Below are positions 1 to 56,131 of a DNA stretch of 57,499 bases, one piece after another. Below the pieces are notes generated by a model. That model saw nothing but the letters and a program-made list of their open reading frames with translations. It was not told where the DNA came from and did no database searches. Source of the stretch: a virus (Duplodnaviria; Heunggongvirae; Uroviricota; Caudoviricetes); IMG/VR virus record IMGVR_UViG_2541047758_000011; one strand, 5' to 3'. A program made the translations under genes and the position numbers. Every line of letters starts with the position of its first letter. The stretch's first letter is position 1.

Positions 1-285
1 TCACCGTTAACGCCATACGATAAATGGGATGGTGAGAAATGGGTGACAGACACTGAGGCACAACACAGTGCCGCAGTAGACGCGGCAGAAGCACAGCGCC
101 AGTCACTGATTGATGCAACAATGGCTTCCATTAGTCTGATTCAGTTGAAATTACAGGCCGGACGGAAACTGACTCAGGCAGAAACAACCCGACTTAACGC
201 CGTGCTGGATTACATTGACGCGGTGACGGCAACAGATACCAGCACCGCGCCGGATGTCATCTGGCCTGAACTGTCGGAGGCGTAG
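1..285 (+). CDS. Tail fiber assembly protein, C-terminal part (5' end outside window)
   Basis: Frame 1 reads SPLTPYDKWDGEKWVTDTEAQ... open from base 1; Tfa-like C-terminus ...TSTAPDVIWPELSEA. Confidence 0.7.
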   Translation, partial: SPLTPYDKWDGEKWVTDTEAQHSAAVDAAEAQRQSLIDATMASISLIQLKLQAGRKLTQAETTRLNAVLDYIDAVTATDTSTAPDVIWPELSEA

Positions 286-685
286 GCCATTCAATATCGG
301 GTGCTGTTGACGTATCAACACGCATCAGCAGCACACGGTATTTCTTCCATTGGGTGAGAGTTGTAGCTTCTTCATCAGTTGCGATATCAGCATCAACAGC
401 ATCCTGACGCCAGGATATTTCACTGTCAGCTTTTTCCCGTAATTGGGATTTTTTAACTTCAGCAATAGCTATTAATTCCTTTTTGGTCGGCTGAGGAATA
501 TCTATCAGTGCTGGTTTTCCATTCAGTGTTCCAATCTGTTTTCCTGGTGGAATATCCATAAATAACTTTTTATGTTCTTCCTCACAGACTATTACACCAT
601 CATCAGGCCACAGACCTGATGCCTCAAATTTTTCTTTCTCCGATATGGGGAAAAAGCCATTTGCTTTAGCGCTCCATACGTACAT
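257..685 (-). CDS. Tail fiber assembly protein (Tfa-like, 142 aa)
   Basis: ORF with Tfa-like C-terminus ...RVLLMRVDTSTAPDIEWPTPP; 3' end converges on and overlaps the + strand tfa. Confidence 0.75.
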   Translation of the reverse strand: MYVWSAKANGFFPISEKEKFEASGLWPDDGVIVCEEEHKKLFMDIPPGKQIGTLNGKPALIDIPQPTKKELIAIAEVKKSQLREKADSEISWRQDAVDADIATDEEATTLTQWKKYRVLLMRVDTSTAPDIEWPTPPTVQAR

Positions 686-686
686 A

Positions 687-1337
687 TCAATACCCCACCG
701 CTATAATGTCCACATTAAATCCTCCGGGACCTGCCTGCCAGATGCTGGCCCCTGTTAATGATTTTGTTTGATGAACAACCGCCACATTTGCTGGCGATTG
801 TGTTTCAGTTGTTACAGTACCGATATCATTCCAGTTAATTGAGATGGAATAGTTCGTTGTTGTAAACGACCGGGGGAAAGTTATGTGTCTTACATTGGTG
901 CCAATAGGAAATCCAAGATAAACACGCTGAATTATCATTCCTCCAGGTAACATAACCCAGTTAGCACCTTCTCCCAAACCAAGGTTTTCGAGAGCCGTTT
1001 GCACAGTGCCATCCGATTTGATATCGCCAAACGGATTCTTGCGGCTCAGGTATTCAACAGCAAACCCCGATCCCAGCAATTCAACAAAACCGGGCAGATC
1101 ACCATTATCAAGCACATCCCGTTGCGTTTTATCACTTACAAACTGGGCCAGAGCTGCAGCAATAAAGCTGGCCTGCCGAATAACCTTATTGACTTGCGCA
1201 CTGGATGCTTTCCCTGCTGTAAATCCGGATATAAGCGCAGGCAACGCTTCCCATTCCTCCTGCGACATAACATTGGCATTTCGATCAGTTGCAAACGCTT
1301 TAAAGTCATTTTTCGCCATCAGAGTAATACTCCCCAT
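687..1337 (-). CDS. Tail fiber C-terminal receptor-binding cassette (216 aa, too short for a full fiber)
   Basis: ORF immediately upstream of tfa on same strand; Gly/Thr-rich fibre-tip-like sequence; abuts deletion junction. Confidence 0.55.
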
Positions 1338-1427
1338 GCCCCTACATCAAAACCACTGATGAATTCGTTATCCATATCAAAACCAAAAAATTTAGAGCCT
1401 TCCGATGGAGTTTCCACCGAAGGTGTT

Positions 1428-1742
1428 TCAATGCCCCCCGCCCATACCCCGGCGGCTTTTACTGTTAGATACCGCCAATACCCGTTTCATCGCGGCACTC
1501 TGGCGACACTCCTTAAAAATCAGGTTCGTGCTCATCTTTCCTTCCCGTTCTTCCCTGGTAGCAAACCGGTAATACACCGTTCGCCAGACCTTACCTTCGA
1601 TAACCAGAAGACCTGCCCGTGCCATTTTAGCCGCGGCCTGATTTATGCTGGTTACTGTTGCGCCTGTTAGCGCGGCAACGTCCGGCGCACAGAAGCTATT
1701 ATGCGTCCCCAGGTAATGAATAATTGCCTCTTTGCCCGTCAT
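1428..1742 (-). CDS. ren: Ren protein (lambda ren-like)
   Basis: MTGKEAIIHYLGTHNSFCAPDVAALTGATVTSINQAAAKMARAG... matches lambda Ren from memory; lies directly after P. Confidence 0.8.
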   Translation of the reverse strand: MTGKEAIIHYLGTHNSFCAPDVAALTGATVTSINQAAAKMARAGLLVIEGKVWRTVYYRFATREEREGKMSTNLIFKECRQSAAMKRVLAVSNSKSRRGMGGGH

Positions 1743-2440
1743 ACACTTGCTCCTTTCAGTCCGAACTTAGCTTTGATTTCTGCGATCTTCGCCAGAGCCT
1801 GTGCACGATTTAGAGGTCTACCGCCCATGACAGGAAGTTGTTTTACTGGTTCAGGGATCGCCTCACCACGGTTAATTCTCGCAGTCATATGGACAAGCTC
1901 ATCTGCGGCCTTACGGCGTAATTCCGCATCAGTAAGCGCATTGGCCCGCATGTTCTGATACAGGTTGGTAACCAGCCAGTAGTGCGCGTTTGATTTCCAC
2001 GGATAAGACTCCGCATCCGGATACAGGCCTCGCTTCCGGCAATACTCGTAAACCATATCAACCAGCTCGCTGGCGTTTGGCAGCCCGGCGGTAACGGATG
2101 CTTCTTCCCGGCACCAGGCAACAAACTGCCCGGGTGATGGCAGGAATGGTCGATTCTGCCGACGGGCTACGCGCATTCCAGCGTTAACCTGTTCCATCGT
2201 GGTGATCCCATTTTCCCGGAAAGCCAGAACCCACTGGCGGCGGATTTCGTTCAGTTCATTCTGGTCACGGTTAGCCAGGCTCGCCGGGAAAGTTGCCAGT
2301 AACTGGCTGAACACACCATTGATGATCTGCGCTACCTGTTGTACCTGCGGCTTTTCGTCGTACTGTTCCGGCATGTTGTTGGCGATCCGGCGCATCTGCT
2401 CACGGTCAAAGTTAACCATCTGTGCGGCGATGTTTTTCAT
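1739..2440 (-). CDS. P: Replication protein P (DnaB helicase loader)
   Basis: 233 aa, MKNIAAQMVNFDREQMRRIANNMPEQYDEK... recalled as lambda P; overlaps O stop. Confidence 0.93.
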   Translation of the reverse strand: MKNIAAQMVNFDREQMRRIANNMPEQYDEKPQVQQVAQIINGVFSQLLATFPASLANRDQNELNEIRRQWVLAFRENGITTMEQVNAGMRVARRQNRPFLPSPGQFVAWCREEASVTAGLPNASELVDMVYEYCRKRGLYPDAESYPWKSNAHYWLVTNLYQNMRANALTDAELRRKAADELVHMTARINRGEAIPEPVKQLPVMGGRPLNRAQALAKIAEIKAKFGLKGASV

Positions 2441-3336
2441 AAATCCACCCCGTAAATCCAGTCAGTGTTTGTCAGGTCGAGTTTTGGTTTGCTGGCTGTC
2501 ACGCCTGCCTGTTGCTTGTTACGGTTGATTTCGAGCTGGGTCCACTTGTCGCGGAGTTTGGCCGGACTCAGCACGTTACCGGACCAGAAGTTGTCCTGGC
2601 AGGCCCAGCGGAAAAGCACACACATATCGCGGTGGTTACGTCCGTCACGTTCACGCATCAGGCGGATATCGTTAGCCCACCCAGCAAAATTCGGTTTTCT
2701 GGCTGATGGCGCGATGGTCTTCACCATGTCAAACATCCACTCTGCGGCGGTCAGGTCTTCTGCTGTTCCCCACTTGCTGCCGCTCTGAATTGCAGCATCC
2801 GGTTTAACCACAGAAAGATCGTTTTCTGGCTGGTCAGAGGATTCGCCAGAATTCTCGGACGAATAATCTTTTCTTTTTTCTTTTGTAATAGTGTCTTTTG
2901 TGTCTCCCTGTTTTGAGGGATAGCAATCCCCCAATTTGAGGGATGTTTTATCCCTCGTTTTAGGGGATTTTCCCTCGTTTTGAGGGATACACCATTCTGA
3001 GATGTTTTTATTTGGTCCAAACATGCCGCCTTGCTGCTTGATAATATTCATTCTGACGAGTTCTAACTTGGCTTCATTGCACCGTTTGACAGGTAACTTT
3101 GTAATCTCGCTAAGTTGAGAATCGGTGATTCTGTCCATTGGTTTATTCCACCCATAGGTTTTACGCAGAATGGCAAGCAGCACTTTAAACTGTCGCTTGG
3201 TCAGATCTGCGCCCGAATAAGCCTCAAGCAGCATATTTGATAGTCTGGCGTAACCATCATCGAGATCTGCCACATTACGCTCCTGTCCGGCAAAGTTACC
3301 TCTGCCGAAGTTGAGTATTTTTGCTGTATTTGTCAT
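2437..3336 (-). CDS. O: Replication initiator protein O
   Basis: 299 aa, MTNTAKILNFGRGNFAGQERNVADLDDGYARLSNMLLEAYSG... recalled as lambda O; contains ori iterons. Confidence 0.93.
   Translation of the reverse strand: MTNTAKILNFGRGNFAGQERNVADLDDGYARLSNMLLEAYSGADLTKRQFKVLLAILRKTYGWNKPMDRITDSQLSEITKLPVKRCNEAKLELVRMNIIKQQGGMFGPNKNISEWCIPQNEGKSPKTRDKTSLKLGDCYPSKQGDTKDTITKEKRKDYSSENSGESSDQPENDLSVVKPDAAIQSGSKWGTAEDLTAAEWMFDMVKTIAPSARKPNFAGWANDIRLMRERDGRNHRDMCVLFRWACQDNFWSGNVLSPAKLRDKWTQLEINRNKQQAGVTASKPKLDLTNTDWIYGVDL
2860..2990. repeat. ori-lambda-type iterons (four TCCCTC...GAGGGA-like repeats) plus AT-rich tract inside O
   Basis: Seen directly: tccctgttttgaggga, tcccccaatttgaggga, tccctcgttttagggga, tccctcgttttgaggga next to an A/T-rich stretch. 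Confidence 0.85.
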
Positions 3337-3368
3337 AATGACTCCTGTTGATAGATCCAGTAATGACC

Positions 3369-3662
3369 TCAGAACTCCATCTGGATTTGTTCAGAACGCT
3401 CGGTTGCCGCCGGGCGTTTTTTATTGGTGAGAATCGCAGCAACTTGTCGCGCCAATCGAACCATGTCGTCGTCAACGACCCCCCATTCAAGAACAGCAAG
3501 CAGCATTGAGAACTTTGGAATCCAGTCTCTCTTCCACCTGCTGATCTGCGACTTATCAACTCCCACAGCTTCCGCTGTCTTCTCAGTTCCAAGCATTGCG
3601 ATTTTGTTAAGCAACGCACTCTCGATTCGTAGAGCCTCGTTGCGTTTGTTTGCACGAACCAT
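3369..3662 (-). CDS. cII: Transcriptional activator CII
   Basis: MVRANKRNEALRIESALLNKIAMLGTEKTAEAVGVDKSQISRWKRDWIPKF... recalled as lambda CII (97 aa). Confidence 0.9.
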   Translation of the reverse strand: MVRANKRNEALRIESALLNKIAMLGTEKTAEAVGVDKSQISRWKRDWIPKFSMLLAVLEWGVVDDDMVRLARQVAAILTNKKRPAATERSEQIQMEF

Positions 3663-3781
3663 ATGTAAGTATTTCCTTAGATAACAATTGATTGAATGTA
3701 TGCAAATAAATGCATACACCATAGGTGTGGTTTAATTTGATGCCCTTTTTCAGGGCTGGAATGTGTAAGAGCGGGAATGTC

Positions 3782-3997
3782 TTAAGCGGCTTTGTGTTCC
3801 GGAGGGAACACGTCATCAAGACTGACTTTTGCGCCTAACTTGTTTAGGCATGCAACAAGAGCGCGGCATGTTTTAAGGTCTGGGAAGCGACGACCAGATT
3901 CCCAATGCCCAATAGCTCCCTGTGTGCATCCAACCGCCTTAGCAAGTGTTGTTTGAGAGATATTCAGTGACTCTCGATATTTTCGTAGGTTGCTCAT
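3782..3997 (-). CDS. cro: Cro-like HTH repressor (non-lambda immunity type)
   Basis: 71 aa HTH protein MSNLRKYRESLNISQTTLAKAVGCTQGAIGHWESGRR, divergent from cI. Confidence 0.7.
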   Translation of the reverse strand: MSNLRKYRESLNISQTTLAKAVGCTQGAIGHWESGRRFPDLKTCRALVACLNKLGAKVSLDDVFPPEHKAA

Positions 3998-4108
3998 ATG
4001 CCCTCCATAGTAACCATGAGACAATAATACGATATGTACTTTTGGAATGCAAACAAAAAATACATCTTGTGCATGGATGGTTTTAGTACAGAGCGTAATA
4101 ATAAGGAT

Positions 4109-4768
4109 ATGAAAATGAAATGGTATGAACTGGCTAGATCCAGAATGAAAGAGCTCGGCATAACTCAAGAGAAGTTGGCTGAAGAGCTTGGTATGACGCA
4201 GGGTGGAATTGGTCACTGGTTGCGCGGATCTCGTCATCCATCTCTTGACGAGATTGGTGTGGTGTTTAAATACCTTGGTATTGATAACGTCTCATTCAAC
4301 CACGACGGTACATTTTCACCTGTTGGCGAATACTCATCTGCCCCCGTTAAAAAACAATATGAGTACCCTGTTTTTTCTCATGTTCAGGCCGGGATGTTCT
4401 CGCCTGAGCTTAGAACCTTTACCAAAGGTGATGCGGAGAGATGGGTCAGCACAACCAAAAAAGCCAGTGATTGTGCGTTTTGGCTTGAAGTTGAAGGTAA
4501 TTCCATGACCGCACCAACAGGATCCAAGCCAAGCTTTCCTGACGGGATGTTAATTCTCGTTGACCCTGAGCAGGCTGTTGAGCCAGGTGATTTCTGCATA
4601 GCCAGACTTGGTGGTGACGAGTTTACCTTCAAGAAACTGATCAGGGATAGCGGTCAGGTGTTCCTACAACCACTAAACCCGCAATATCCAATGATCCCAT
4701 GCAATGATAGCTGTTCCGTTGTAGGGAAAGTTATCGCCAGCCAGTGGCCAGAAGAGACGTTTGGGTGA
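4109..4768 (+). CDS. cI: CI-like prophage repressor (HTH N-domain of different immunity, lambda-cI-like S24 C-domain)
   Basis: C-terminal domain matches lambda cI (..[40 protein letters not shown]..) with Ser/Lys dyad intact; N-terminal HTH differs; start chosen at ATG 4109 after AAGGA. Confidence 0.85.
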
Positions 4769-4793
4769 TAGGAATGGATGTTAAGGATTAAGA

Positions 4794-5840
4794 ATGTCAG
4801 CGATTGATCAACCTGCGCAATATGTTATCAAGTCAGAAGACGACTTTGTATCTTTTGTAACAGAAATGCTCGGAAGGAAGGATATCGACTCAAGCGACTT
4901 CACATTCCCTAACGTAGTTTTCAGTGGATGGCCAAAGATCAATATTAATGTAAAAGGCGATCCAAATAGATATAATTCTTCATTGACTGCGTCAATGCTT
5001 TTTGGTATGGCAGAGCTTACGCATGAAATACAAAAAGCATTTACGGTAGTCAGTCACAGCACTCATAATCGGCAGAAGCTAAAAGATGCAGAGAAAGGTT
5101 TGCTGGATATTGTCTACCGAATAAGCGAAGGCTCAAGCCAAGCGGATGGTGACTCAGATCCGATTGTAAACGGAGTGGTGACAGTGTTTACTCAAGCGAT
5201 AGGCAAAATGACAGGAAGGCAAGCACTATGCGCCGTCGCCGCTATCGTCTTAGCTGCCAGCACGGTAGGCTATAAGTGGATCAATGAGTACTACGAAACA
5301 CAGCGACATGACCAAGATTCTCAGGTGCAATTGGTGGAAAAAAGCACCAAAGCGGTAAACGAAGCACAAGACAATGTGCTCAAGTTGTTGATTAGCGGTC
5401 AAACAAACATTAGCAGAGAGGTTCTGGCTCACGGCGAGGATGGTAAAAGCAAGTTGCTTAAAAAGCTTGCTCAAGACTCGTCAGTTGAGAGGGTAACAAT
5501 TGGTCAGAGAGTGGTAAATAGAGAACAGTTGAATACCTTAAACCAAAGACAATCAATTGATCGAAAAAAGGAAACTAGAAGAGATAACTTTTATGTCACG
5601 GGCGTTCGTCGCTCGGGAGAAACAAATCAGGACATAAATATTGACGTCATAAGGGTTTCAAATGGTGAATCTTTCACCATAAAAACCTCAGCCGACATAA
5701 CATCTACTGATGAGCTTCTTGAGTTTTTGAATGCTGTAGCCAAAGAATCAACTGTTGAAATTTCATACCTAGAGGTTGTAGAAAATGGGCACATTTCAAC
5801 AGGGCAATTGATAAATATATTCCCCAGCGAACCAGAGTGA
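4794..5840 (+). CDS. Unknown 348-aa protein at the rexAB position; one hydrophobic segment and a charged C-terminal half
   Basis: Long ORF 25 bp after cI, same strand, followed by hairpin terminator; no similarity to RexA/RexB recognised; AT-rich by inspection. Confidence 0.7.
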   Translation: MSAIDQPAQYVIKSEDDFVSFVTEMLGRKDIDSSDFTFPNVVFSGWPKININVKGDPNRYNSSLTASMLFGMAELTHEIQKAFTVVSHSTHNRQKLKDAEKGLLDIVYRISEGSSQADGDSDPIVNGVVTVFTQAIGKMTGRQALCAVAAIVLAASTVGYKWINEYYETQRHDQDSQVQLVEKSTKAVNEAQDNVLKLLISGQTNISREVLAHGEDGKSKLLKKLAQDSSVERVTIGQRVVNREQLNTLNQRQSIDRKKETRRDNFYVTGVRRSGETNQDINIDVIRVSNGESFTIKTSADITSTDELLEFLNAVAKESTVEISYLEVVENGHISTGQLINIFPSEPE

Positions 5841-5851
5841 TGCACTCCAAA

Positions 5852-5879
5852 CCCGGCCTCAGCGCCGGGTTTTCTTTTT
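5852..5879 (+). terminator. Rho-independent terminator after the cI operon
   Basis: cccggcctcagcgccggg hairpin followed by ttttcttttt. Confidence 0.7.
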
Positions 5880-5944
5880 CCAAAATATAAACCCATTAAA
5901 TACAAAGCGTTATAAAAAACTAATTATATTTAGAACATTTTGTA

Positions 5945-5973
5945 TTGACTCGATAAAGTACAAATCGTACTAT
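5945..5973 (+). promoter_or_regulatory. pL-like promoter (TTGACT, 17 bp, TACTAT)
   Basis: -35 ttgact and -10 tactat with 17-bp spacer upstream of nutL/N. Confidence 0.55.
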
Positions 5974-6013
5974 TTAGCCATCAGCAGGACGCACTGACCA
6001 CCATTGAAGGTGA

Positions 6014-6044
6014 GGCTCTTAAAAATTTAGCCCTGAAGAAGGGC
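6014..6044 (+). promoter_or_regulatory. nutL site (boxA gctcttaaaaatt, boxB gccctgaagaagggc)
   Basis: boxB hairpin GCCCTGAAGAAGGGC recalled as lambda nutL boxB, preceded by boxA-like CGCTCTTAA. Confidence 0.85.
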
Positions 6045-6154
6045 AGCATTCAAAGCAGAAGGCTTTGAGTAGCGCGAAATGCAGCTGCAAGACAGCAACC
6101 GTGGAGATAAGCATCACGGCGCGTTACTCAAAGCTAACTGACAGGAGAATCCAG

Positions 6155-6487
6155 ATGGATGCACAAGCACGCCGCCGCGAACGTCGCGCAGAGAAACAGG
6201 CTCAATGGAAAGCAGCAAATCCCCTGTTGGTTGGGGTAAGCGCAAAACCAGTTAACCGCCCTATTCTCTCGCTGAATCGCAAACCGAAATCACGAGTAGA
6301 AAGCGCACTGAATCCGATAGACCTTACGGTGCTGGCTGAATACCACGAACAGATTGAAAGCAACCTGCAACGTATTGAGCGCAAGAATCAGCGCACATGG
6401 TACAGCAAGCCACGCTGTGAAATGGGTGTGACTTGCTCAGGCCGCCAGAAGCAACGCGGAAAATCAATTCCAGCTTATTACGATTGA
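6155..6487 (+). CDS. N: Antitermination protein N
   Basis: MDAQARRRERRAEKQAQWKAANPLLVGVSAKPVNRPILSLNRKPKSR... arginine-rich motif, lambda N-like. Confidence 0.9.
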   Translation: MDAQARRRERRAEKQAQWKAANPLLVGVSAKPVNRPILSLNRKPKSRVESALNPIDLTVLAEYHEQIESNLQRIERKNQRTWYSKPRCEMGVTCSGRQKQRGKSIPAYYD

Positions 6488-6495
6488 GGTGAGCC

Positions 6496-6633
6496 ATGCT
6501 CAAGAAAGTCAAACGCCGACTTTACAAAGAAGGTAGATATTCATGCCAGTTGCCAAAATGCGACACAACAAAATGGAGTGTCGATGATTGGTGTAACTGG
6601 ATAGATAGATACGGAACTTGGTGGGATAAATAA
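6496..6633 (+). CDS. Small Cys-rich hypothetical protein (45 aa)
   Basis: Short ORF MLKKVKRRLYKEGRYSCQLPKCDTTKWSVDDWCNWIDRYGTWWDK; below the 60-aa ORF track threshold. Confidence 0.3.
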   Translation: MLKKVKRRLYKEGRYSCQLPKCDTTKWSVDDWCNWIDRYGTWWDK

Positions 6634-6757
6634 CAGGTAACTTAAGCGTATTTACTTTCGCAGCAAACAACTTATTTGAGGTGATATATGGAAGAAGAAT
6701 TTGAAGAGTTCGAAGAGCATCCTCAGGATGTGATGGAACAATACCAGGACTATCCGT

Positions 6758-6937
6758 ATGACTACGACTATTGATAAAAATCAATGGTGTGGACAATTCA
6801 AGCGATGCAATGGATGCAAGCTGCAATCGGAATGCATGGTTAAGCCTGAAGAAATGTTTCCTGTAATGGAAGATGGGAAATATGTCGATAAATGGGCAAT
6901 ACGAACGACGGCAATGATTGCCAGAGAACTTGGTTAA
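6758..6937 (+). CDS. ral: Restriction alleviation protein Ral
   Basis: MTTTIDKNQWCGQFKRCNGCKLQSECMVKPEEMFPVMEDGKYVDKWAIRTTAMIARELG recalled as lambda Ral; below ORF track threshold, found by manual translation. Confidence 0.8.
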   Translation: MTTTIDKNQWCGQFKRCNGCKLQSECMVKPEEMFPVMEDGKYVDKWAIRTTAMIARELG

Positions 6938-7094
6938 CAGAACAACAAAGCTGCCTGATAGTGGCCTTTATTTTTGGCATAAATAACAGAATAAACACTG
7001 CACTGTGTATTCATTCCAACGAGTGAATACACGGAGCAATGTCGCTCGTAACTAAACAGGAGCCGACTTGTTCTGATTATTGGAAATCTTCTTC

Positions 7095-7120
7095 GCCCTC
7101 CAGTGTGAGGGCGATTTTTT
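7095..7120 (+). terminator. Rho-independent terminator (gccctccagtgtgagggc + T-run), preceded by a 9-bp perfect inverted repeat at 7005-7032
   Basis: Hairpin plus gatttttt; whole ~125-bp block is repeated at 49441-49562. Confidence 0.65.
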
Positions 7121-7140
7121 ATCTATGAGGATATGAATAG

Positions 7141-7509
7141 ATGTCAAACATCAAAAAATACATCATTGATTACGACTGGAAAGCATCAATAGAAATTGAA
7201 ATCGACCATGACGTAATGACAGAGGAAAAACTTCACCAGATTAATAATTTCTGGTCAGACTCTGAATACCGACTCAATAAACACGGCTCTGTATTAAATG
7301 CTGTATTAATCATGCTGGCGCAACATGCTCTGCTTATAGCAATTTCAAGCGACTTAAATGCATATGGTGTTGTGTGTGAGTTCGACTGGAATGATGGAAA
7401 TGGTCAGGAAGGATGGCCTCCAATGGATGGTAGCGAAGGAATAAGAATTACCGATATCGATACATCAGGAATATTTGATTCAGATGATATGACTATCAAA
7501 GCCGCCTGA
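7141..7509 (+). CDS. ea10: Ea10-like early protein (122 aa)
   Basis: Sits between ral and cIII as lambda ea10 does and has the same length (122 aa). Confidence 0.7.
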   Translation: MSNIKKYIIDYDWKASIEIEIDHDVMTEEKLHQINNFWSDSEYRLNKHGSVLNAVLIMLAQHALLIAISSDLNAYGVVCEFDWNDGNGQEGWPPMDGSEGIRITDIDTSGIFDSDDMTIKAA

Positions 7510-7581
7510 GCGCGGCGTTACCGCATACCAATAACGCTTCACTCGAGGCGTTTTTCGTTATGTATAAATAAGGAGCACACC

Positions 7582-7746
7582 ATGCAATATGCCATTGCAG
7601 GGTGGCCTGTTGCTGGCTGCCCTTCCGAATCTTTACTTGAACGAATCACCCGTAAATTACGTGACGGATGGAAACGCCTTATCGACATACTTAATCAGCC
7701 AGGAGTCCCAAAAAATGGATCAAACACTTATGGCTATCCAGACTAA
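7582..7746 (+). CDS. cIII: CIII protein (FtsH inhibitor)
   Basis: [54 protein letters not shown] recalled as lambda cIII. Confidence 0.9.
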   Translation: MQYAIAGWPVAGCPSESLLERITRKLRDGWKRLIDILNQPGVPKNGSNTYGYPD

Positions 7747-7858
7747 ATTCACTATCGCCACTTTTATTGGCGATGAAAAGATGTTTCGTGAGGCCGTCGA
7801 CGCTTATAAAAAATGGATATTAATACTGAAACTGAGATCAAGCAAAAGCATTCACTAA
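7715..7858 (+). CDS. kil: Kil protein (FtsZ inhibitor)
   Basis: [47 protein letters not shown] recalled as lambda Kil; overlaps cIII 3' end. Confidence 0.85.
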
Positions 7859-8229
7859 CCCCCTTTCCTGTTTTCCTAATCAGCCCGGCATTTCGCGGGC
7901 GATATTTTCACAGCTATTTCAGGAGTTCAGCCATGAACGCTTATTACATTCAGGATCGTCTTGAGGCTCAGAGCTGGACGCGTCACTACCAGCAGATCGC
8001 CCGTGAAGAGAAAGAGGCAGAACTGGCAGACGACATGGAAAAAGGCCTGCCCCAGCACCTGTTTGAATCGCTATGCATCGATCATTTGCAACGCCACGGG
8101 GTCAGCAAAAAAGCCATTACCCGTGCGTTCGATGACGATGTTGAGTTTCAGGAGCGCATGGCAGAACACATCCGGTACATGGTTGAAACCATTGCTCACC
8201 ACCAGGTTGATATTGATTCAGAGGTATAA
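7813..8229 (+). CDS. gam: Gam (RecBCD inhibitor)
   Basis: 138 aa [55 protein letters not shown]... lambda Gam. Confidence 0.93.
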
Positions 8230-8234
8230 AACGG

Positions 8235-9020
8235 ATGAGTACAGCACTCGCAACGCTGGCTGGGAAGCTGGCTGAACGTGTCGGCATGGATTCTGTCGAC
8301 CCACAGGAACTGATCACCACTCTTCGCCAGACGGCATTTAAAGGTGATGCCAGCGATGCGCAGTTCATCGCATTGTTGATCGTCGCCAACCAGTACGGCC
8401 TTAATCCGTGGACGAAAGAAATTTACGCCTTCCCTGACAAGCAGAACGGCATCGTTCCGGTGGTGGGCGTTGATGGCTGGTCCCGCATCATCAATGAAAA
8501 CCAGCAGTTTGATGGCATGGACTTTGAGCAGGACAATGAATCCTGCACATGCCGGATTTACCGCAAAGACCGCAATCATCCGATCTGCGTTACCGAGTGG
8601 ATGGATGAATGCCGCCGCGAACCATTCAAAACCCGCGAAGGCAGAGAAATCACGGGGCCGTGGCAGTCGCATCCCAAACGGATGTTACGGCATAAAGCCA
8701 TGATTCAGTGTGCCCGTCTCGCCTTCGGATTTGCTGGTATCTATGACAAGGATGAAGCCGAGCGCATTGTCGAAAATACCGCATACACTGCAGAACGTCA
8801 GCCGGAACGCGACATCACTCCGGTTAACGATGAAACCATGCAGGAGATTAACACTCTGCTGATTGCCCTGGATAAAACATGGGATGACGACTTATTGCCG
8901 CTCTGTTCCCAGATATTTCGCCGCGACATTCGCGCATCGTCAGAACTGACACAGGCCGAAGCAGTGAAAGCTCTTGGATTCCTGAAACAGAAAGCCACTG
9001 AGCAGAAGGTGGCAGCATGA
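8235..9020 (+). CDS. bet: Bet (Red-beta ssDNA annealing protein)
   Basis: 261 aa [59 protein letters not shown]... lambda Bet. Confidence 0.95.
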
Positions 9021-9697
9021 CACCGGACATTATACTGCAGCGTACCGGGATCGACGTGAGAGCTGTCGAACAGGGGGATGATGCATGGCACAAATTACGG
9101 CTCGGCGTCATCACCGCTTCAGAAGTTCACAACGTGATAGCAAAGCCCCGATCAGGAAAGAAGTGGCCTGACATGAAAATGTCCTACTTCCACACCCTGC
9201 TGGCTGAGGTTTGCACCGGTGTGGCTCCGGAAGTTAACGCTAAAGCGCTGGCCTGGGGAAAACAGTACGAGAACGACGCCAGAACCCTGTTTGAGTTCAC
9301 TTCCGGCGTAAATGTTATTGAATCCCCGATCATCTATCGCGACGAAAGTATGCGCACCGCCTGCTCTCCCGATGGTTTATGCAGTGACGGCAATGGCCTT
9401 GAGCTGAAATGCCCGTTTACCTCCCGGGATTTCATGAAGTTCCGGCTCGGTGGTTTCGAGGCCATAAAGTCGGCTTACATGGCCCAGGTGCAGTACAGCA
9501 TGTGGGTGACGCGAAAAGATGCCTGGTACTTTGCCAACTATGACCCGCGTATGAAGCGTGAAGGCCTGCATTATGTCGTGGTTGAGCGGGATGAAAAGTA
9601 CATGGCGAGTTTTGACGAGATGGTGCCGGAGTTCATCGAAAAAATGGACGAGGCACTGGCTGAAATTGGTTTTGCATTTGGGGAGCAATGGCGATGA
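9017..9697 (+). CDS. exo: Lambda exonuclease (Red-alpha)
   Basis: 226 aa [65 protein letters not shown]... lambda Exo. Confidence 0.95.
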
Positions 9698-9855
9698 AGC
9701 ATCCTCACGATAATATCCGGGTAGGCACGATCACTTTCGTCTACTCCGTTACAAAGCGAGGCTGGGTATTTCCCGGCCTTTCTGTTATCCGAAATCCCCT
9801 GAAAGCACAGCGGCTGGCTGAGGAGATAAATAATAAACGGGGGCTGTATGACTGA
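9694..9855 (+). CDS. Small hypothetical protein (53 aa) overlapping exo stop
   Basis: ATG at 9694; [31 protein letters not shown]...; not in ORF track. Confidence 0.35.
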
Positions 9856-10405
9856 TTTCACCGGAAGCAATACTCCTGCCGAACATCGCGACAGCTGGCG
9901 CACACCACCAGAGATTTTTGCTGCGCTTAATGCAGAGTTCGTTTTTCAACTTGATGCTGCCGCCAGCGAAAAAAACCGACTATGTCGGCTTTTTATCTCA
10001 CAGGAGCAGAACACATTAACCACTTCATGGCCTGAAGCAATGGGATATGCCTCTGGTTATGTCTGGTTGAATCCACCATACAGCAATATTTCCCCTTTTG
10101 TGAAAAAGGCAGCCACTGAAAACAAATTCAGTAGTGTGGGATGTGTAATGTTATTGCCTGCTGACACATCTGTCGGATGGTTTCATGAAGCGATACAAAC
10201 CGCCAGTGAGGTCAGATTCATCACGGCAGGACGACTGGCATTTATTAACCCACTCACTGAGAAACCCGTCAGTGGAAATAATAAAGGCTCGATGCTCATT
10301 ATCTGGCACCCATACCCCCGTACACACTGCCACTTTACGACCGTTGATCGTGGAGAGTTGATGGCGTTCGGCTCAAGGATTCTTGCCCGTCGGGAGGCTG
10401 CATGA
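9848..10405 (+). CDS. Phage N6-adenine DNA methyltransferase (Dam-like, NPPY motif)
   Basis: 185 aa with ...YVWLNPPYSNISPF... motif IV typical of N6-adenine MTases; no adjacent restriction endonuclease seen. Confidence 0.75.
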   Translation: MTDFTGSNTPAEHRDSWRTPPEIFAALNAEFVFQLDAAASEKNRLCRLFISQEQNTLTTSWPEAMGYASGYVWLNPPYSNISPFVKKAATENKFSSVGCVMLLPADTSVGWFHEAIQTASEVRFITAGRLAFINPLTEKPVSGNNKGSMLIIWHPYPRTHCHFTTVDRGELMAFGSRILARREAA

Positions 10406-10481
10406 CAACCACGGAATGCATTTTTCTGGCAGCGGGCTTCATATTCTGTGTGCTTATGCTTGCCGACATGGGACTTGTTCA

Positions 10482-10697
10482 ATGACACCTCAGCAGGAAA
10501 ACGCCCTTCGCAGCATTGCCCGTCAGGCTAATTCTGAAATCAAAAAAGCCAGACAGCAGTTTCCGGATAAAAACGTCGATGACATTTGCCGTAGCGTACT
10601 AAAGAAGCACCGCGAAACGGTAACGCTGATGGGATTCACACCGACTCATTTAAGCCTGGCGATCGGCATGTTAAACGGCGTCTTTAAGGAACGGTGA
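10482..10697 (+). CDS. Hypothetical protein (71 aa)
   Basis: ORF from ATG 10482 (MTPQQENALRSIARQANSEIKKARQQ...). Confidence 0.45.
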   Translation: MTPQQENALRSIARQANSEIKKARQQFPDKNVDDICRSVLKKHRETVTLMGFTPTHLSLAIGMLNGVFKER

Positions 10698-10795
10698 ACA
10701 TGAAAAGCAAAATCATCAGGGAGCTACAGGCTCCTTTTTTATTGTTCGCATTCATCCTCAAGCGTATTAACCAACAATTCAGGGATTAATGGAAG

Positions 10796-11014
10796 ATGGC
10801 AGACATCATTGATTCAGCATCAGAAATCGAAGAATTACAGCGCAATACAGCAATAAAAATGCGTCGTCTGAACCACCAGGCTATATCTGCCACTCATTGT
10901 TGTAAGTGTGGCGATCCCATAGATGAACGAAGACGCCTGGCCGTTCAGGGTTGTCGGACTTGTGCAAGTTGCCAGGAGGAGATCGAACTTAAGAACAAAC
11001 AATGGGGATTGTGA
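10796..11014 (+). CDS. TraR/DksA-family C4 zinc-finger protein
   Basis: 72 aa with CxxC...CxxC (HCCKCGDPIDERRRLAVQGCRTCASCQ) typical of DksA/TraR fold. Confidence 0.7.
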   Translation: MADIIDSASEIEELQRNTAIKMRRLNHQAISATHCCKCGDPIDERRRLAVQGCRTCASCQEEIELKNKQWGL

Positions 11015-11061
11015 TGGCCTCAAAGCAGCAAATTTCAACATCGTCCAACTGAGGTGTAAAA

Positions 11062-11340
11062 ATGTTCAGAATCATTTTTCCTAACACCTGGTACGTCGAC
11101 CACCACGGCACTCCCTGCAAAATCCTGCGTTCTACCCACAACAAAGTTCACTACATCCGAAAAGGCAGAACATGTATCGCCAGCATGTTCCGCTTTAATC
11201 ATGACTTTGAACCTGTGAATAAAGCTGATGCAGATCGGATAGCAGAAGAGATCGAAACGGCAGAACACATTAAGAAGTTACGTGACATGCGTTCAAAAAG
11301 CAGAGGTAACCATGGAATCATACAGCCTCACACTCGATGA
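11062..11340 (+). CDS. Hypothetical protein (92 aa)
   Basis: ORF upstream of xis; no recognised motif. Confidence 0.4.
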   Translation: MFRIIFPNTWYVDHHGTPCKILRSTHNKVHYIRKGRTCIASMFRFNHDFEPVNKADADRIAEEIETAEHIKKLRDMRSKSRGNHGIIQPHTR

Positions 11341-11662
11341 GGCCTGTCAGTTTCTTAAGATATCCAGACCAACCGCCACCAACTGGATACGAACAGGCCG
11401 CCTACAGGCAACACGCAAAGACCCCACTAAACCAAAATCTCCTTACCTCACAACGCGACAAGCCTGCATTGCGGCGCTTCAGTCTCCGCTGCATACTATC
11501 AAGGTGAGCGCGGGTGATGGCATAACAGAGGAAAGAAAATGTCACTCTTCCGCAGAAGTGAAATATGGTACGCCAGTTTCACATTGCCGAACGGTAAAAG
11601 ATTTAAACAGTCTCTTGGAACAAAGGACAAAAGGCAGGCGACAGAGCTCCATGACAAGCTAA
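11312..11662 (+). CDS. xis: Excisionase-like protein (Xis), overlapping int start by 124 nt
   Basis: [45 protein letters not shown]... HTH directly upstream of int; ORF stays open into int. Confidence 0.55.
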
Positions 11663-12702
11663 AGGCTGAAGCATGGCGGGTCAGCAAACTTGGTGAAATA
11701 CCTGATATGACGTTCGAGGAGGCGTGTATCAGGTGGCTCGAAGAGAAAGCACATAAAAAATCACTGGACGATGACAAAAGCCGGATCGGATTCTGGCTTC
11801 AACATTTCGCAGGAATGCAACTAAGAGACATTACTGAATCAAAAATTTATTCAGCAATGCAGAAAATGACGAACCGGCGTCATGAGGAAAACTGGAAACT
11901 CAGGGCAGAAGCATGCAGAAAAAAAGGGAAACCTGTTCCAGAATACACGCCAAAACCAGCGTCCGTTGCAACGAAGGCTACGCATCTTTCATTTATAAAG
12001 GCCCTACTAAGAGCCGCAGAGCGTGAATGGAAAATGCTGGATAAGGCACCAATTATTAAAGTGCCTCAACCAAAGAATAAACGGATCCGCTGGCTGGAGC
12101 CCCATGAAGCACAAAGGCTGATTGATGAATGTCCGGAGCCATTAAAGTCTGTTGTTGAATTTGCACTGGCAACAGGTTTAAGACGCTCGAACATCATCAA
12201 CCTTGAATGGCAACAAATAGATATGCAGCGCCGGGTGGCATGGATAAACCCGGAAGAGAGTAAATCAAACCGCGCAATCGGCGTTGCGCTGAATGATACT
12301 GCATGTCGCGTTTTGAAAAAACAAATCGGGAATCATCACCGTTGGGTATTTGTGTACAAGGAAAGCTGTACCAAACCAGACGGAACGAAAGCGCCAACAG
12401 TAAGGAAGATGCGGTATGACGCAAACACAGCCTGGAAAGCGGCGCTGAGACGAGCTGGTATTGATGATTTCAGATTTCACGACTTGAGACACACCTGGGC
12501 AAGTTGGCTGGTTCAAGCCGGAGTCCCGTTGTCAGTGTTACAGGAAATGGGTGGCTGGGAGTCTATCGAAATGGTTCGTCGATATGCTCACCTCGCGCCT
12601 AATCACCTTACCGAACACGCACGGCAAATAGACTCGATTCTGAACCCATCGGTCCCAAATTTGTCCCAGTCAAAAAATAAGGAAGGTACTAATGATGTGT
12701 AA
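11539..12702 (+). CDS. int: Tyrosine integrase (prophage A)
   Basis: 387 aa with C-terminal catalytic region ...[42 protein letters not shown]; stop 14 bp before tRNA 3' fragment. Confidence 0.9.
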
Positions 12703-12762
12703 CTTATTGATTTAAATGGTGCCGATAATAGGAGTCGAACCTACGACCTTCGCATTACGAAT
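12699..12762. repeat. 64-bp att core direct repeat (copy 1), identical to 56038-56101; includes 46-nt 3' fragment of tRNA-Thr (12717-12762)
   Basis: gtaacttattgatttaaatggtgccgataataggagtcgaacctacgaccttcgcattacgaat is present at both positions by direct comparison. Confidence 0.9.
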
Positions 12763-38522: not shown

Positions 38523-38598
38523 TGGTGCTGGTTAACGGACTTGAACCGCTACCCATTCGCTTACAAGACGACTGCTCTACCATTAGAGCTAAACCAGC
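38523..38598 (-). tRNA. Phage tRNA-like gene, anticodon read as UGU (Thr); one mismatch in anticodon stem
   Basis: Manual fold: 7-bp acceptor stem (GCTGGTT/AACCAGC), D-arm GCTC/GAGC, T-loop TTCAAGT, discriminator A + CCA; anticodon loop CTTGTAA. Confidence 0.5.
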
Positions 38599-38603
38599 AT
38601 GTT

Positions 38604-38678
38604 TGGCGGGACAGCGTGGACTCGAACCACGATAAGAAGGTTAACAGCCTTCCGTAATGACCTTTATACGACTGACCC
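38604..38678 (-). tRNA. Phage tRNA-like gene, anticodon read as GUU (Asn); atypical D-arm
   Basis: Manual fold: T-arm CGTGG-TTCGAGT-CCACG, anticodon stem GAAGG/CCTTC with loop CTGTTAA, 3' ...GCCA; acceptor 6/7 pairs, D-stem 3/4. Confidence 0.45.
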
Positions 38679-38952: not shown

Positions 38953-39576
38953 CTAACGTGTGACCGCGTTCAAAATGTTGTCTGCGATTGACTCTTCCTT
39001 GTGGCATTGAACCACCAGAGCGTCATACAGCGGCTTAACAGTGCGTGACCAGGTGGGTTGAGTAAGATTTGGGATTAGCATCGTTACAGCGCGATATGCG
39101 GCGCTTGCTGGTATTCTTGAATAGCCGACACCTTTGCATCTTCCGCATTCTTTCTCGACAACTCTCCCCCACTGCTCTGTTTTTGCTATATCAACCGCAC
39201 GGCCTGTACCGTGGCAATCTCTGCACCTTGCTCCCGGCGTCGCGGCACTACGGCAATAATCCGCATAAGCGAATGTTGCGAGCACTTGCAGTACCTTTGC
39301 CTTAGTATTTCCTTCAAGCTTTGCCACGCCACGGTATTTCCCCGATACCTTGTGTGCAAATTGCATCAGATAGTTGATAGCCTTTTGTTTGTCATTCTGG
39401 CTGAGTTCGTGCTTACCACAGAATGCAGCCATTCCGAATCCGGCTTGTGATTGCGCCATCCCCATAGCAGCCATCACATCAGTACCGGAAAGAGAGTCAG
39501 AAGCCGTAGCCCGTGGTGAGTCGCTCATCATCGGGCTTTTTGGCGAATGAAATTTAGCTACACTTTCGAGTCTCAT
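38953..39576 (-). CDS. Q: Late antiterminator Q
   Basis: 207 aa MRLESVAKFHSPKSPMMSDSPRATASDSLSGTDVMAAMGMAQSQAGFGMAAFCGKHEL... lambda Q. Confidence 0.95.
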   Translation of the reverse strand: MRLESVAKFHSPKSPMMSDSPRATASDSLSGTDVMAAMGMAQSQAGFGMAAFCGKHELSQNDKQKAINYLMQFAHKVSGKYRGVAKLEGNTKAKVLQVLATFAYADYCRSAATPGARCRDCHGTGRAVDIAKTEQWGRVVEKECGRCKGVGYSRIPASAAYRAVTMLIPNLTQPTWSRTVKPLYDALVVQCHKEESIADNILNAVTR

Positions 39577-43409: not shown

Positions 43410-44659
<1,250 letters not shown>

Positions 44660-47266: not shown

Positions 47267-47917
47267 ATGAATACACAACTGATGGGTGAGCGTATTCGCG
47301 CTCGCAGAAAAGAACTCAAGATTAGGCAGGCTTCCCTTGGCAAGATGGTTGGCGTGTCTAATGTTGCTATTTCCCAATGGGAGCGATCTGAAACTGAGCC
47401 CAATGGCGAAAACCTATTGGCCTTAGCCAAGGCTTTGCAGTGCTCCCCTGATTACCTGTTGAAAGGAGAGGATAGTCTTTCAAACATTGCCTATCACAGC
47501 AGGCATGATCCAAGAGGTTCGTATCCTCTAATTAGTTGGGTAAGCGCAGGATGTTGGATGGAAGCTGTAGAGCCATATCATAGGCGTGCAATAGATAACT
47601 GGTACGACACAACGGTAGATTGTTCTGAAGACTCTTTTTGGCTCGACGTTAAAGGCGACTCAATGACTGCCCCGGCAGGACTGAGTATTCCTGAGGGGAT
47701 GATTATTCTCGTCGACCCAGAAGTCGAACCACGTAATGGAAAGCTGGTAGTCGCCAAACTTGAAGGAGAAAACGAGGCGACATTCAAAAAGTTAGTTATT
47801 GATGCCGGTAGAAAATTCCTGAAACCACTCAATCCACAATACCCAATGATTGAAATCAATGGGAACTGTAAAATCATTGGCGTTGTCGTTGATGCCAAGC
47901 TAGCAAACCTTCCTTAA
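47267..47917 (+). CDS. c2: C2 repressor (P22-type, S24 autopeptidase)
   Basis: 216 aa MNTQLMGERIRARRKELKIRQASLGKMVGVSNVAISQWERSETEPNGENLLAL... with GDSM Ser and Lys dyad. Confidence 0.92.
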   Translation: MNTQLMGERIRARRKELKIRQASLGKMVGVSNVAISQWERSETEPNGENLLALAKALQCSPDYLLKGEDSLSNIAYHSRHDPRGSYPLISWVSAGCWMEAVEPYHRRAIDNWYDTTVDCSEDSFWLDVKGDSMTAPAGLSIPEGMIILVDPEVEPRNGKLVVAKLEGENEATFKKLVIDAGRKFLKPLNPQYPMIEINGNCKIIGVVVDAKLANLP

Positions 47918-47938
47918 GGGGCTTTCGCCCCTTTTTTA
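47917..47938 (+). terminator. Rho-independent terminator after c2
   Basis: aaggggctttcgcccctt + T-run. Confidence 0.7.
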
Positions 47939-47989
47939 TTTCCCGTTAAAAATCAAAGACAAACTAAATTCACGTCCATAAAATTAAGT

Positions 47990-48045
47990 TTTCTTCAAAA
48001 ATGCACTTGACCAATAAATTAAGAAGTCTTAAATTTAAGCCATCA
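47990..48045 (+). promoter_or_regulatory. pL/OL region (TTGACC -35, operator-like ttaagaagtcttaaatt)
   Basis: cacttgaccaataaattaagaagtcttaaatttaag upstream of nut-like hairpin. Confidence 0.55.
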
Positions 48046-48084
48046 GCAGGACGCTGGAAGCCAAACGGAACAGATTGGCAGGCT

Positions 48085-48125
48085 CTTTAACATCGACGGA
48101 CTCTCAACCTAACCGTTGAGACCAG
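48085..48125 (+). promoter_or_regulatory. nutL-like site (boxA-like ctctttaa, boxB-like hairpin ctcaacctaaccgttgag)
   Basis: Short hairpin preceded by boxA-like motif upstream of N-like gene. Confidence 0.45.
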
Positions 48126-48231
48126 AACTTGAGTGGTTTTGGGGATGGCGCGAATTGCAGCTGCAAGACAGCGATCGAGAAGATAAGCACCTCGACGCGT
48201 CATGCGCCAAAGCCACTTAAAGGAGACCATC

Positions 48232-48537
48232 ATGGTAACCATTGTCTGGAAAGAATCCAAAGGTACGGCAAAAAGCCGCTACAAAGCTCGCAGAGCAGAA
48301 CTTATTGCCGAGCGACGCAGTAATGAAGCACTGGCGCGAAAAATTGCGCTAAAGCTCTCTGGTTGCGTCAGAGCAGACAAAGCAGCATCACTAGGAAGCC
48401 TTTGCTGCAAGAAGAAAGAAGAAGTCGTTCGAAAAAATAGAAGTATTTATTACAAAGATTCAAACCCATTAGGAAACAAAATACATGCAGTCCAAAAAAT
48501 AAAATTGTACAGTAAACTACCGTACGGTGCTTATTGA
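48232..48537 (+). CDS. N-like antitermination protein with arginine-rich motif (P22 gp24 analogue)
   Basis: N-terminal ..KSRYKARRAELIAERR.. ARM; first gene after pL/nut; start chosen at ATG 48232 after AAGGAG. Confidence 0.55.
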   Translation: MVTIVWKESKGTAKSRYKARRAELIAERRSNEALARKIALKLSGCVRADKAASLGSLCCKKKEEVVRKNRSIYYKDSNPLGNKIHAVQKIKLYSKLPYGAY

Positions 48538-54656: not shown

Positions 54657-55004
54657 GTGGAAGAAGAAATCTTCACTCGTGAAGAGGCAGCATCGTATCT
54701 GAAGGTAGACAAAGGCACTATCACGCAGTGGATACGAAGTGGACGACTTCAGGCCGCAAAGATAAATCCAGATAAACCTAAAAGCCCATATCGCATTTGC
54801 AAGTCAGACTGCATTGCGGCGCTTAAGTCTGTAAGACACAATAGCGCGGTGAATGCGGTTGATGTGCAGGAGGTTAAAGCATGTCAATCAAACTACGCGG
54901 TGGCACGTGGCACTGTGATTTCGTCGCGCCAGATGGATCAAGAGTTAGACGCTCTCTTGAAACATCGGACAAAAGGCAAGCGCAAGAACTTCACGATCGT
55001 CTGA
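54657..55004 (+). CDS. xis: Excisionase-like protein (Xis), GTG start, overlapping int by 124 nt
   Basis: ..EEIFTREEAASYLKVDKGTITQWIRSGRLQAAKINPDKPKSPYRICKSDCIAAL.. same architecture as prophage A xis. Confidence 0.55.
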   Translation: MEEEIFTREEAASYLKVDKGTITQWIRSGRLQAAKINPDKPKSPYRICKSDCIAALKSVRHNSAVNAVDVQEVKACQSNYAVARGTVISSRQMDQELDALLKHRTKGKRKNFTIV

Positions 55005-56041: not shown

Positions 56042-56101
56042 CTTATTGATTTAAATGGTGCCGATAATAGGAGTCGAACCTACGACCTTCGCATTACGAA
56101 T
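56038..56101. repeat. 64-bp att core direct repeat (copy 2), spanning int stop, spacer and 3' 46 nt of tRNA-Thr
   Basis: Identical to 12699-12762 by direct comparison. Confidence 0.9.
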
Positions 56102-56131
56102 GCGCTGCTCTACCAACTGAGCTATATCGGC
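56056..56131 (-). tRNA. thrW: tRNA-Thr (anticodon CGU)
   Basis: Reverse complement GCCGATATAGCTCAGTTGGTAGAGCAGCGCATTCGTAATGCGAAGGTCGTAGGTTCGACTCCTATTATCGGCACCA folds as canonical cloverleaf; matches E. coli thrW from memory. Confidence 0.9.

Follow-up and report, generated by a model that had tools for sequence, protein, structure and literature searches.

In the 57,499-nucleotide stretch of DNA from the IMG/VR virus record IMGVR_UViG_2541047758_000011 (Caudoviricetes; hereafter the window), we analyzed an open reading frame (ORF) for a 348-aa protein that lies directly downstream of the cI repressor gene of a lambdoid prophage. As judged from alignments with related phages, this gene is a drop-in replacement of rexAB within the immunity transcription unit (pRM to t_imm). 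Its product, a predicted membrane-anchored member of a large family with no functional annotation, is probably an anti-phage protection factor of some kind, and a block of genome entry at the inner membrane, of the superinfection-exclusion type, is put forward more tentatively as its specific mechanism.

The cassette between cI and t_imm

An earlier note on this DNA had placed the ORF 25 nt after cI on the same strand, ending at a hairpin terminator and filling the slot of rexAB, and each of these points was confirmed. The ORF map and the sequence put the ATG start 25 nt past cI, with a ribosome-binding site (AAGGA, 4783-4787) 6 nt upstream of it and no terminator-like site seen in the spacer. 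The stop codon (5838-5840) is followed after 8 nt by t_imm, a GC-rich 9-bp hairpin (5849-5872) with the tract TCTTTTT behind it, which is the sole strong terminator-like site nearby. PGAP and the phi458 authors both called the identical ORF and labelled it a hypothetical protein. The description of the ORF as AT-rich had to be softened: its GC content (~0.39-0.46) lies slightly below that of cI (0.42-0.48), and the bias is only mild.

The end of cI and the region past the ORF were aligned with lambda, HK542, mEp332 and Dewey. Similarity to the other lambdoids ends precisely with the cI stop codon and is picked up again shortly (a few bases) ahead of the t_imm hairpin. The stem of this hairpin (AACCCGGCCTCAGCGCCGGGTTTTCTTT) is the same in lambda, HK542 and mEp332, and Dewey has three deviating bases in it. 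The annotators of HK542 label this hairpin t_imm, the terminator of the pRM, pRE and pLit transcripts. The survey of cI-N cargo proposed in the earlier note found rexA-rexB between these edges in lambda, two unrelated ORFs in HK542, HK244 and HK544, an NYN-domain protein in ev099, essentially nothing in Dewey and Louie, and the 348-aa ORF in the window prophage and phi458. Divergent relatives of the 348-aa protein occupy the cI-N slot of phages mEp332 and PhiR12: the member from mEp332 (lambda immunity; 345 aa) is 27% identical across the N-terminal domain and the helix (E=5e-17), and that from PhiR12 (341 aa) is 25% identical with 93% of the length covered. The cassette edges, fixed at the cI stop and t_imm with varying contents between them, argue for the 348-aa gene being a drop-in replacement of rexAB.

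The earlier note had described the early region of the prophage as close to lambda. This holds for the gene order (cro-cI-ORF-N-ral-cIII-kil-gam-bet-exo-int), which is lambda-like from cro to int; the element (1-12760), however, is a defective remnant without nin, Q, lysis and head genes, in which the 348-aa gene itself is intact. The start codon of cI is uncertain (4073 according to PGAP, 4193 according to the phi458 authors). The C-terminal domain of the repressor is near-identical to that of lambda cI, whereas its N-terminal DNA-binding domain differs. The gene is a mosaic: the DNA of the S24 domain is 92-98% identical to cI of many lambdoid and Stx phages, and the part for the DNA-binding domain and the operators match Dewey, Louie and phi458, not lambda. 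The pL flank shows one mismatch to Dewey in the aligned stretch and, since the pL region is the same, Dewey and Louie presumably have the same immunity as the window prophage.

The 348-aa ORF would be co-transcribed with cI from pRM in the lysogen, since this is known for lambda. The cI promoter ranks among the most highly transcribed in lysogens (PMC8585504). The cI-N region, a hotspot of mosaic diversity (Owen et al., PMC8585504, citing Degnan et al. 2007), houses the abortive infection (Abi) systems rexAB and bstA (PMC8585504); the earlier note had called this slot an established superinfection-exclusion/Abi locus.

The window also contains an internal comparator. In a second, larger lambdoid prophage that lies in tandem with the first (~12800-56130), the cI stop directly abuts a hairpin terminator (GGGGCTTTCGCCCC) with a T tract, followed by a pL-like promoter and N (47915-48205); the cI-N slot of this prophage is therefore empty.

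Family, predicted fold and genomic context

The 348-aa protein belongs to a single library family, phrog_6191 of PHROGs, which has no functional annotation (E=5.8e-36; residues 7-342 matched to positions 5-331 of the 338-position profile). A word-indexed search returned 56 relatives, all from Enterobacterales and all hypothetical, and an exhaustive profile search returned 932 representative clusters (50% identity) at E<=1e-3, 573 of them at E<=1e-10. Family members are ~330 aa long and nearly all fall within 300-380 aa, indicating that the architecture is conserved. Comparison of the ORF with a homologue of 87% amino-acid identity gave a nonsynonymous divergence (dN) of 0.073 and a synonymous divergence (dS) of ~1.9; the dN/dS of 0.039 and the 932 matching clusters argue that the ORF is a genuine gene on which purifying selection acts strongly.

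In the protein collection, at least 1000 contigs carry exactly this protein, always without a name. The window allele is present in 18 of 5426 complete E. coli genomes, and the three family alleles of this species in 18, 18 and 5 of them, all chromosomal and all hypothetical. One genome (NZ_CP132063.1, E. coli QML220601, yak) holds two copies of the gene at different chromosomal sites, one of them at 1477445-1478491, and another prophage early region matching the window at 3821691-3833110. Many public gene calls for the family are 279-281 aa long (entries P0005, P0006, P0044, P0046, P0047, P0051 and P0233). According to the alignment, the 281-aa call P0051 is without the first ~64 residues, and the truncation of the other short calls was deduced from their length and ~80% query coverage; such calls would lose part of the conserved N-terminal domain, including the GWP and NVKG motifs.

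Scans of the protein against Pfam, NCBIfam and PADLOC v2.0.0 gave nothing above noise, with no Pfam match at E<=0.1. When 128 diverse members were searched against Pfam and PADLOC, no match recurred (single-member noise at E>=2e-4), and KilA-N, Bro-N and ANT domains were absent from these members at E<=0.01; PADLOC-DB dates from 2023, and a very recent naming could escape it. A PDB profile search with alignment A1 found no match, and one with alignment A2 found weak, helix-driven matches alone (MotB at E=0.005, Tom20 and PBP5), which we dismissed as composition matches. Homology to the lambda proteins RexA (279 aa), RexB (144 aa) and SieB was rejected on the basis of hhalign comparisons with the 128-sequence family profile, which gave probabilities of 0.34%, 0.35% and 0.17%, respectively. 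Homologues in PV340541 and PV340549-54 carry the GenBank label 'T2SS GspM containing protein'. This identity was rejected as well: T2SSM was unmatched in the 348-aa protein (no Pfam match at E<=10), and Pfam gave no family at E<=1 for the labelled mEp332 and PhiR12 homologues. The Pmp14 homologue, labelled hypothetical, had unrelated weak Pfam matches only. The likeness to GspM lies in the bitopic layout, in which one membrane helix separates two soluble parts, and has no sequence support. The earlier note could not assign the protein to RexA, RexB or any other family, and this stands for characterised families; confident homology to a characterised non-defence protein was found in none of Pfam, NCBIfam and the PDB.

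The AlphaFold2 model built with the 128-sequence alignment reached a predicted local distance difference test score (pLDDT) of 87.9 and a predicted template-modelling (TM) score of 0.76. An N-terminal alpha/beta domain, with the motifs FxGWP, NVKG, SSxT and GSS, is followed in it by a single hydrophobic helix, a helical linker and a beta-rich C-terminal domain with the order b1-b2-b3-helix-b4-b5 (pLDDT ~90-97; Table 1). The soluble N-terminal part and the one hydrophobic helix described in the earlier note were thus recovered, and exactly one hydrophobic segment (Kyte-Doolittle hydropathy >=1.6), conserved in position, was found in 158 of 199 members. What had been described as a charged C-terminal half, in contrast, is in the model a helical linker and a well-predicted OB-like beta-barrel. 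Mean pairwise identity is 29% in the N-terminal domain, 17% in the linker and 20% in the OB domain. The residues near-invariant family-wide (90%) are F43, W46, P47, G55, L96, G113 and M139, none of which would suggest catalysis. The helix is rich in the small residues A, G, S and T, of the kind favouring helix-helix packing.

Foldseek searches of the PDB, run with the poor model as well as the good one, retrieved no structure at E<=1e-3, and the N-terminal domain was without any structural neighbour. The consistent domain-level neighbours were OB folds only (SilF/CusF, the anticodon-binding N-domain of LysRS, eIF5A, Teb1 OB-B, RPA and LEF-3), matched with probabilities of 0.95-1.0 and target-normalised TM scores of 0.45-0.62, but with E-values of just 0.03-0.4. 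The search against BFVD returned one uncharacterised phage protein (E=3.8e-4) plus the same OB folds, so the structural check proposed in the earlier note yielded a resemblance of the C-terminus alone. When the sequence was read, without the aid of a signal-peptide predictor, neither a signal peptide nor a lipobox was noted; the helix flanks carry net charges of +0.6 on the N-side and -0.5 on the C-side. The lack of a noted signal peptide, the 140-residue domain before the helix and this modest charge asymmetry suggest a single-span topology with the N-terminus inside and the C-terminus outside.

Our survey of genomic context covered tens of loci and leaned on one distant clade and the enterobacterial clade; ORFs at the IMG/VR loci were called mechanically. 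Seven members of one clade at 20-25% identity were looked up, and all seven are co-directional with, and downstream of, a gene in the repressor position that faces a divergent early operon. Upstream of the member is an S24 cI-type repressor in the case of a lambdoid prophage of Marinomonas, and an HTH_3 c-type repressor in each of three Mu-like prophages, which have Mu transposases; in a P2-like element the member stands between a Phage_CI_repr protein and an integrase, and two further prophages complete the set. For five of these seven repressor-position proteins, Pfam HTH, S24 or CI_repr matches are on record. In distant clades, 27 IMG/VR loci were covered, and a repressor-type gene was counted within the three upstream co-directional ORFs at 12 of them when the ORF maps were read by eye; nine of ten candidate proteins submitted carry HTH and/or S24 Pfam domains. 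Judged from these maps, synteny with a repressor recurs across lambdoid, Mu-like and P2-like prophages, as reported for BstA. A conserved small partner gene was considered and rejected, because the 83-103-aa ORFs found between repressor and member in four loci are unrelated to one another. At marine or environmental loci L081, L085/L086 and L095, a membrane protein with BRCT and/or WYL domains lies between repressor and member, and two of the three such proteins are matched by PDC-S48, a candidate defence family of PADLOC, which suggests that the lysogenic operon holds cargo clusters of several genes.

The gene also occurs beyond the cI-N slot, at prophage ends and inside tail modules. Copies were found at moron positions (by int at icd, by ssrA/smpB and by dinI-like genes) and among prophage tail and baseplate genes. 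At IMG/VR locus L099 (4926-6108), which belongs to a Mu-like prophage, a member separates the baseplate genes gp45 and gp46, and at L054 and L055 members at ~4980-6005 lie between tail or baseplate genes, which thus form a second recurrent insertion site, inside the late operon. A simple consensus scan found no autonomous promoter at the prophage-edge and baseplate copies. Some members occur in chromosomal islands, by restriction-like, helicase and NERD genes; the defence-type neighbours include a NERD protein in Pseudoalteromonas and an HSDR_N nuclease-domain protein.

Candidate functions of the 348-aa protein

Defence or exclusion cargo downstream of a prophage repressor is an established category, which cannot be said of this protein family or its fold. 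The 348-aa gene shares with rexA/rexB the same cassette from the cI stop to t_imm, the orientation of cI, the status of dispensable cargo in the lysogenic operon and a membrane-associated product, predicted in the case of the 348-aa protein. It differs in being one gene instead of two and in encoding one hydrophobic segment where RexB has four transmembrane helices. The N-terminal alpha/beta domain and the C-terminal OB-like barrel are absent from the Rex proteins, to which there is no sequence relationship (hhalign ~0.3% each). BstA of the Salmonella prophage BTP1 (PMC8585504) is similar in that a single gene with its own terminator encodes a two-domain protein of ~300-350 aa. It lies directly downstream of the repressor, the promoter presumably being shared, and this synteny is kept in diverse Gram-negative prophages (PMC8585504). 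In BstA the DNA-binding N-domain is KilA-N-like, and the protein acts at phage DNA replication sites (PMC8585504); the 348-aa protein, which matches neither KilA-N nor any PADLOC model, has a hydrophobic helix at its centre. The word 'transmembrane' is absent from the text of PMC8585504. No aba-like element was seen by the 348-aa gene, although no search was aimed at one.

Inner-membrane superinfection-exclusion (Sie) proteins such as Sie2009 of Lactococcus, P22 SieA, HK97 gp15, T4 Imm and lambda SieB are likewise prophage products made in the lysogen; they are much smaller than the 348-aa protein and act alone, and some of their genes are placed next to the repressor (Sie2009) or at moron sites. 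We know of no Sie protein with a large conserved cytoplasmic domain or an OB-like domain. Apart from SieB, for which homology was rejected as described above, these proteins are set apart from the 348-aa protein by their descriptions.

We favour an entry block of this kind over a Rex-like abortive response by a small margin only. The 348-aa protein would be made from pRM in the lysogen along with cI and would span the inner membrane once, with its N-terminus inside and its C-terminus outside. With such a topology, the stalk and the OB domain, which vary more, would lie on the periplasmic side, at the place where the inner membrane is reached by phage tail tips and ejection proteins. There the stalk and the OB domain may recognize a component of the infecting phage, while the conserved N-terminal domain and the helix would hold or assemble the protein at the membrane, and infection would be blocked at genome entry. 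The candidacy of the gene for defence or exclusion, raised in the earlier note, is supported by the repressor synteny and the restriction-like neighbours of relatives, and by the finding that the gene is intact and 100% identical though the prophage is defective. A protective function is nevertheless what we infer, since the gene is not confined to the cI-N slot.

Several observations weigh against an entry-blocking protein. No PADLOC model rose above noise with the 348-aa protein, a check proposed in the earlier note, or with the 128 members. The literature searched on the accession, phi458 Orf11, PhiR12/mEp332 and GspM with anti-phage activity yielded no functional statement, and the phi458 study deleted only the entire prophage (PMC9701743). 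The K+R counts on the two flanks of the helix are about equal (2.3 vs 2.5). The presumed-cytoplasmic domain of 140 aa is the best-conserved part of the protein, which is unusual for the small known Sie proteins. Many of the OB neighbours bind nucleic acid (LysRS, RPA, LEF-3 and a ligase OB), a trait more in line with an Abi sensor that has its C-terminus in the cytoplasm than with a plug in the periplasm.

These OB neighbours, being mostly nucleic-acid binders, speak for a single-chain Rex-like abortive infection system, a reading we regard as nearly as likely as the entry block. The OB domain, then cytoplasmic, or the N-terminal domain would sense a phage product or replication intermediate, the protein would oligomerise, its helices would permeabilise or depolarise the inner membrane, and the cell would die or arrest before phage release. 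In keeping with this, the cassette is that of the Abi systems rexAB and bstA, some members sit in chromosomal islands near restriction-like, helicase and NERD genes, a conserved module (N-terminal domain plus helix) is paired with a more variable one, the small-residue-rich helix (A, G, S, T) is of the packing type, and the conserved cytoplasmic domain exceeds in size that of any Sie protein known to us. However, hhalign found no homology to RexA or RexB, a single hydrophobic helix stands against the four of RexB, and the only residues to reach 90% across the family (F, W, P, G, L, G and M) include none of catalytic type. Nor is a self-immunity element evident, although the gene is carried by inducible phages such as phi458 and lies within late operons of some Mu-like phages.

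The family could also represent phage sentinels of a new type, widespread, transmembrane and made of a single chain, which temperate phages of unrelated lineages (lambdoid, Mu-like and P2-like) would each have wired to the repressor promoter; in this broader proposal we place little confidence. A variable OB ectodomain on a helical stalk would sense the DNA-delivery apparatus or DNA at the inner membrane, and a signal would cross one helix to the conserved cytoplasmic domain of novel fold, triggering exclusion or abortive infection.

It is rather unlikely that the gene is a lysogenic-conversion moron kept for its benefit to the host, altering the envelope physiology of the latter (stress tolerance, adhesion or biofilm, colonisation, or a transport or secretion interaction). 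Copies at classic moron sites (int, ssrA, dinI, tail modules) and the intact state of the gene in a defective prophage would be expected of such a moron, and its OB-like domain is also similar in fold to periplasmic CusF/SilF and to toxin B subunits. Deletion of the whole phi458 prophage alters biofilm formation and virulence of an avian pathogenic E. coli strain (PMC9701743), but these phenotypes were not mapped to the 348-aa gene (PMC9701743). The linkage to repressors recurs in Enterobacterales, Marinomonas and marine and other metagenomes, which is hard to reconcile with a host-niche trait, several members have defence-type neighbours, and neither a signal peptide or lipobox on reading nor an enzyme or transporter signature in the Pfam and NCBIfam scans was noted.

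The tight, repeated, same-orientation linkage to varied repressors, including short HTH-only ones without the S24 self-cleavage domain, could instead indicate an accessory regulator of the lysis-lysogeny switch, a membrane sensor that would tune repressor stability or induction to envelope or environment signals; the bitopic architecture is like that of signal transducers. We consider this role very unlikely, because Dewey and Louie, of the same immunity, do without the gene, lambda-immunity phages hold unrelated cargo in the slot, and many members are far from any repressor (prophage ends, tail modules, non-prophage islands). In addition, the cI of the window has its own S24 domain, and no DNA-binding, protease or kinase domain appeared in the Pfam scans. 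A spurious or decaying ORF without function, as might be suspected from its purely hypothetical annotation, its rarity in E. coli (18/5426 complete genomes) and its defective host prophage, is effectively refuted by the conservation data (dN/dS 0.039, a full-length ORF with the same architecture in hundreds of clusters and the exact protein on at least 1000 contigs), alongside which stand the confident AlphaFold model (pLDDT 87.9) and the good ribosome-binding site and terminator.

Two classic Abi systems, rexAB and bstA, have come from the cI-N slot, whose cargo is otherwise largely unstudied. The 348-aa gene stands for hundreds of clusters without a functional name, a Pfam, NCBIfam or PADLOC model, or a PDB sequence or fold. 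If protective, it would enlarge the defence repertoire of bacteria by a new immunity or exclusion family that is membrane-based and consists of a single gene, offer a simple model for envelope phage recognition by a bitopic protein, and account for some of the 'dark' content through which prophage immunity regions influence host range in phage therapy. Natural controls exist (phi458 with the gene, Dewey and Louie with the same immunity and an empty slot, mEp332 and PhiR12 with divergent alleles in the same slot), and the question is therefore directly testable.

The two prophages of the window

The coordinates of the features discussed here are collected in Table 1.

Table 1. Features of the 348-aa gene, its cassette and the second prophage, in window coordinates
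Feature	Position	Strand	Remarks
cI repressor, LexA/S24 family	4073..4768	+	directly upstream of the 348-aa ORF
cI-ORF spacer, 25 nt	4769..4793	+	left edge of the swappable cassette
348-aa ORF	4794..5840	+	WP_001272876.1; phi458 Orf11; ATG start; phrog_6191 member
N-terminal alpha/beta domain	4794..5213	+	codons 1-140; modelled residues ~8-138
Single hydrophobic helix QALCAVAAIVLAASTVGYKWI	5220..5282	+	codons ~143-163 (model ~141-163); predicted membrane anchor
Helical linker/stalk	5283..5483	+	codons 164-230; lowest model confidence, most variable region
Beta-rich C-terminal domain, OB-fold topology	5484..5822	+	codons 231-343
t_imm terminator AACCCGGCCTCAGCGCCGGGTTTTCTTT	5849..5880	+	right edge of the cassette
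pL-like promoter	5945..5973	+	TTGACT-17-TACTAT
nutL boxB hairpin GCCCTGAAGAAGGGC	6030..6044	+	
Antiterminator N (MDAQARRRERRAEKQAQWKAAN...)	6155..6487	+	
Second prophage, structural genes	13783-35235	-	
Second prophage, tRNA-Thr/Asn	38523-38678		
Second prophage, Q-like gene	38953-39576		
IS3-family orfB	43440-44258	-	
IS3-family orfA	44285-44623	-	
Second prophage, cI	47267-47917		
Second prophage, N-like gene	48202-48537		
Second prophage, int	54881-56041		
tRNA-Thr(cgt)	56056-56131		past the second prophage int, then proA

In the first prophage, ren (1428-1742, - strand) directly abuts inverted fragments of tail-fibre and tail-fibre-assembly genes (257-1337). The neighbouring pinE is interrupted by IS3 in NZ_LR882057, within the stretch that is 100% identical, and nin, Q, lysis and head genes are lacking. 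A clear relationship between the two integrases points to tandem integration of both prophages at one attachment site. An IS3-family element (43440-44623) sits in the replication module of the second prophage, between primase-like and helicase-like ORFs; because of this insertion, the second prophage may also be disabled.

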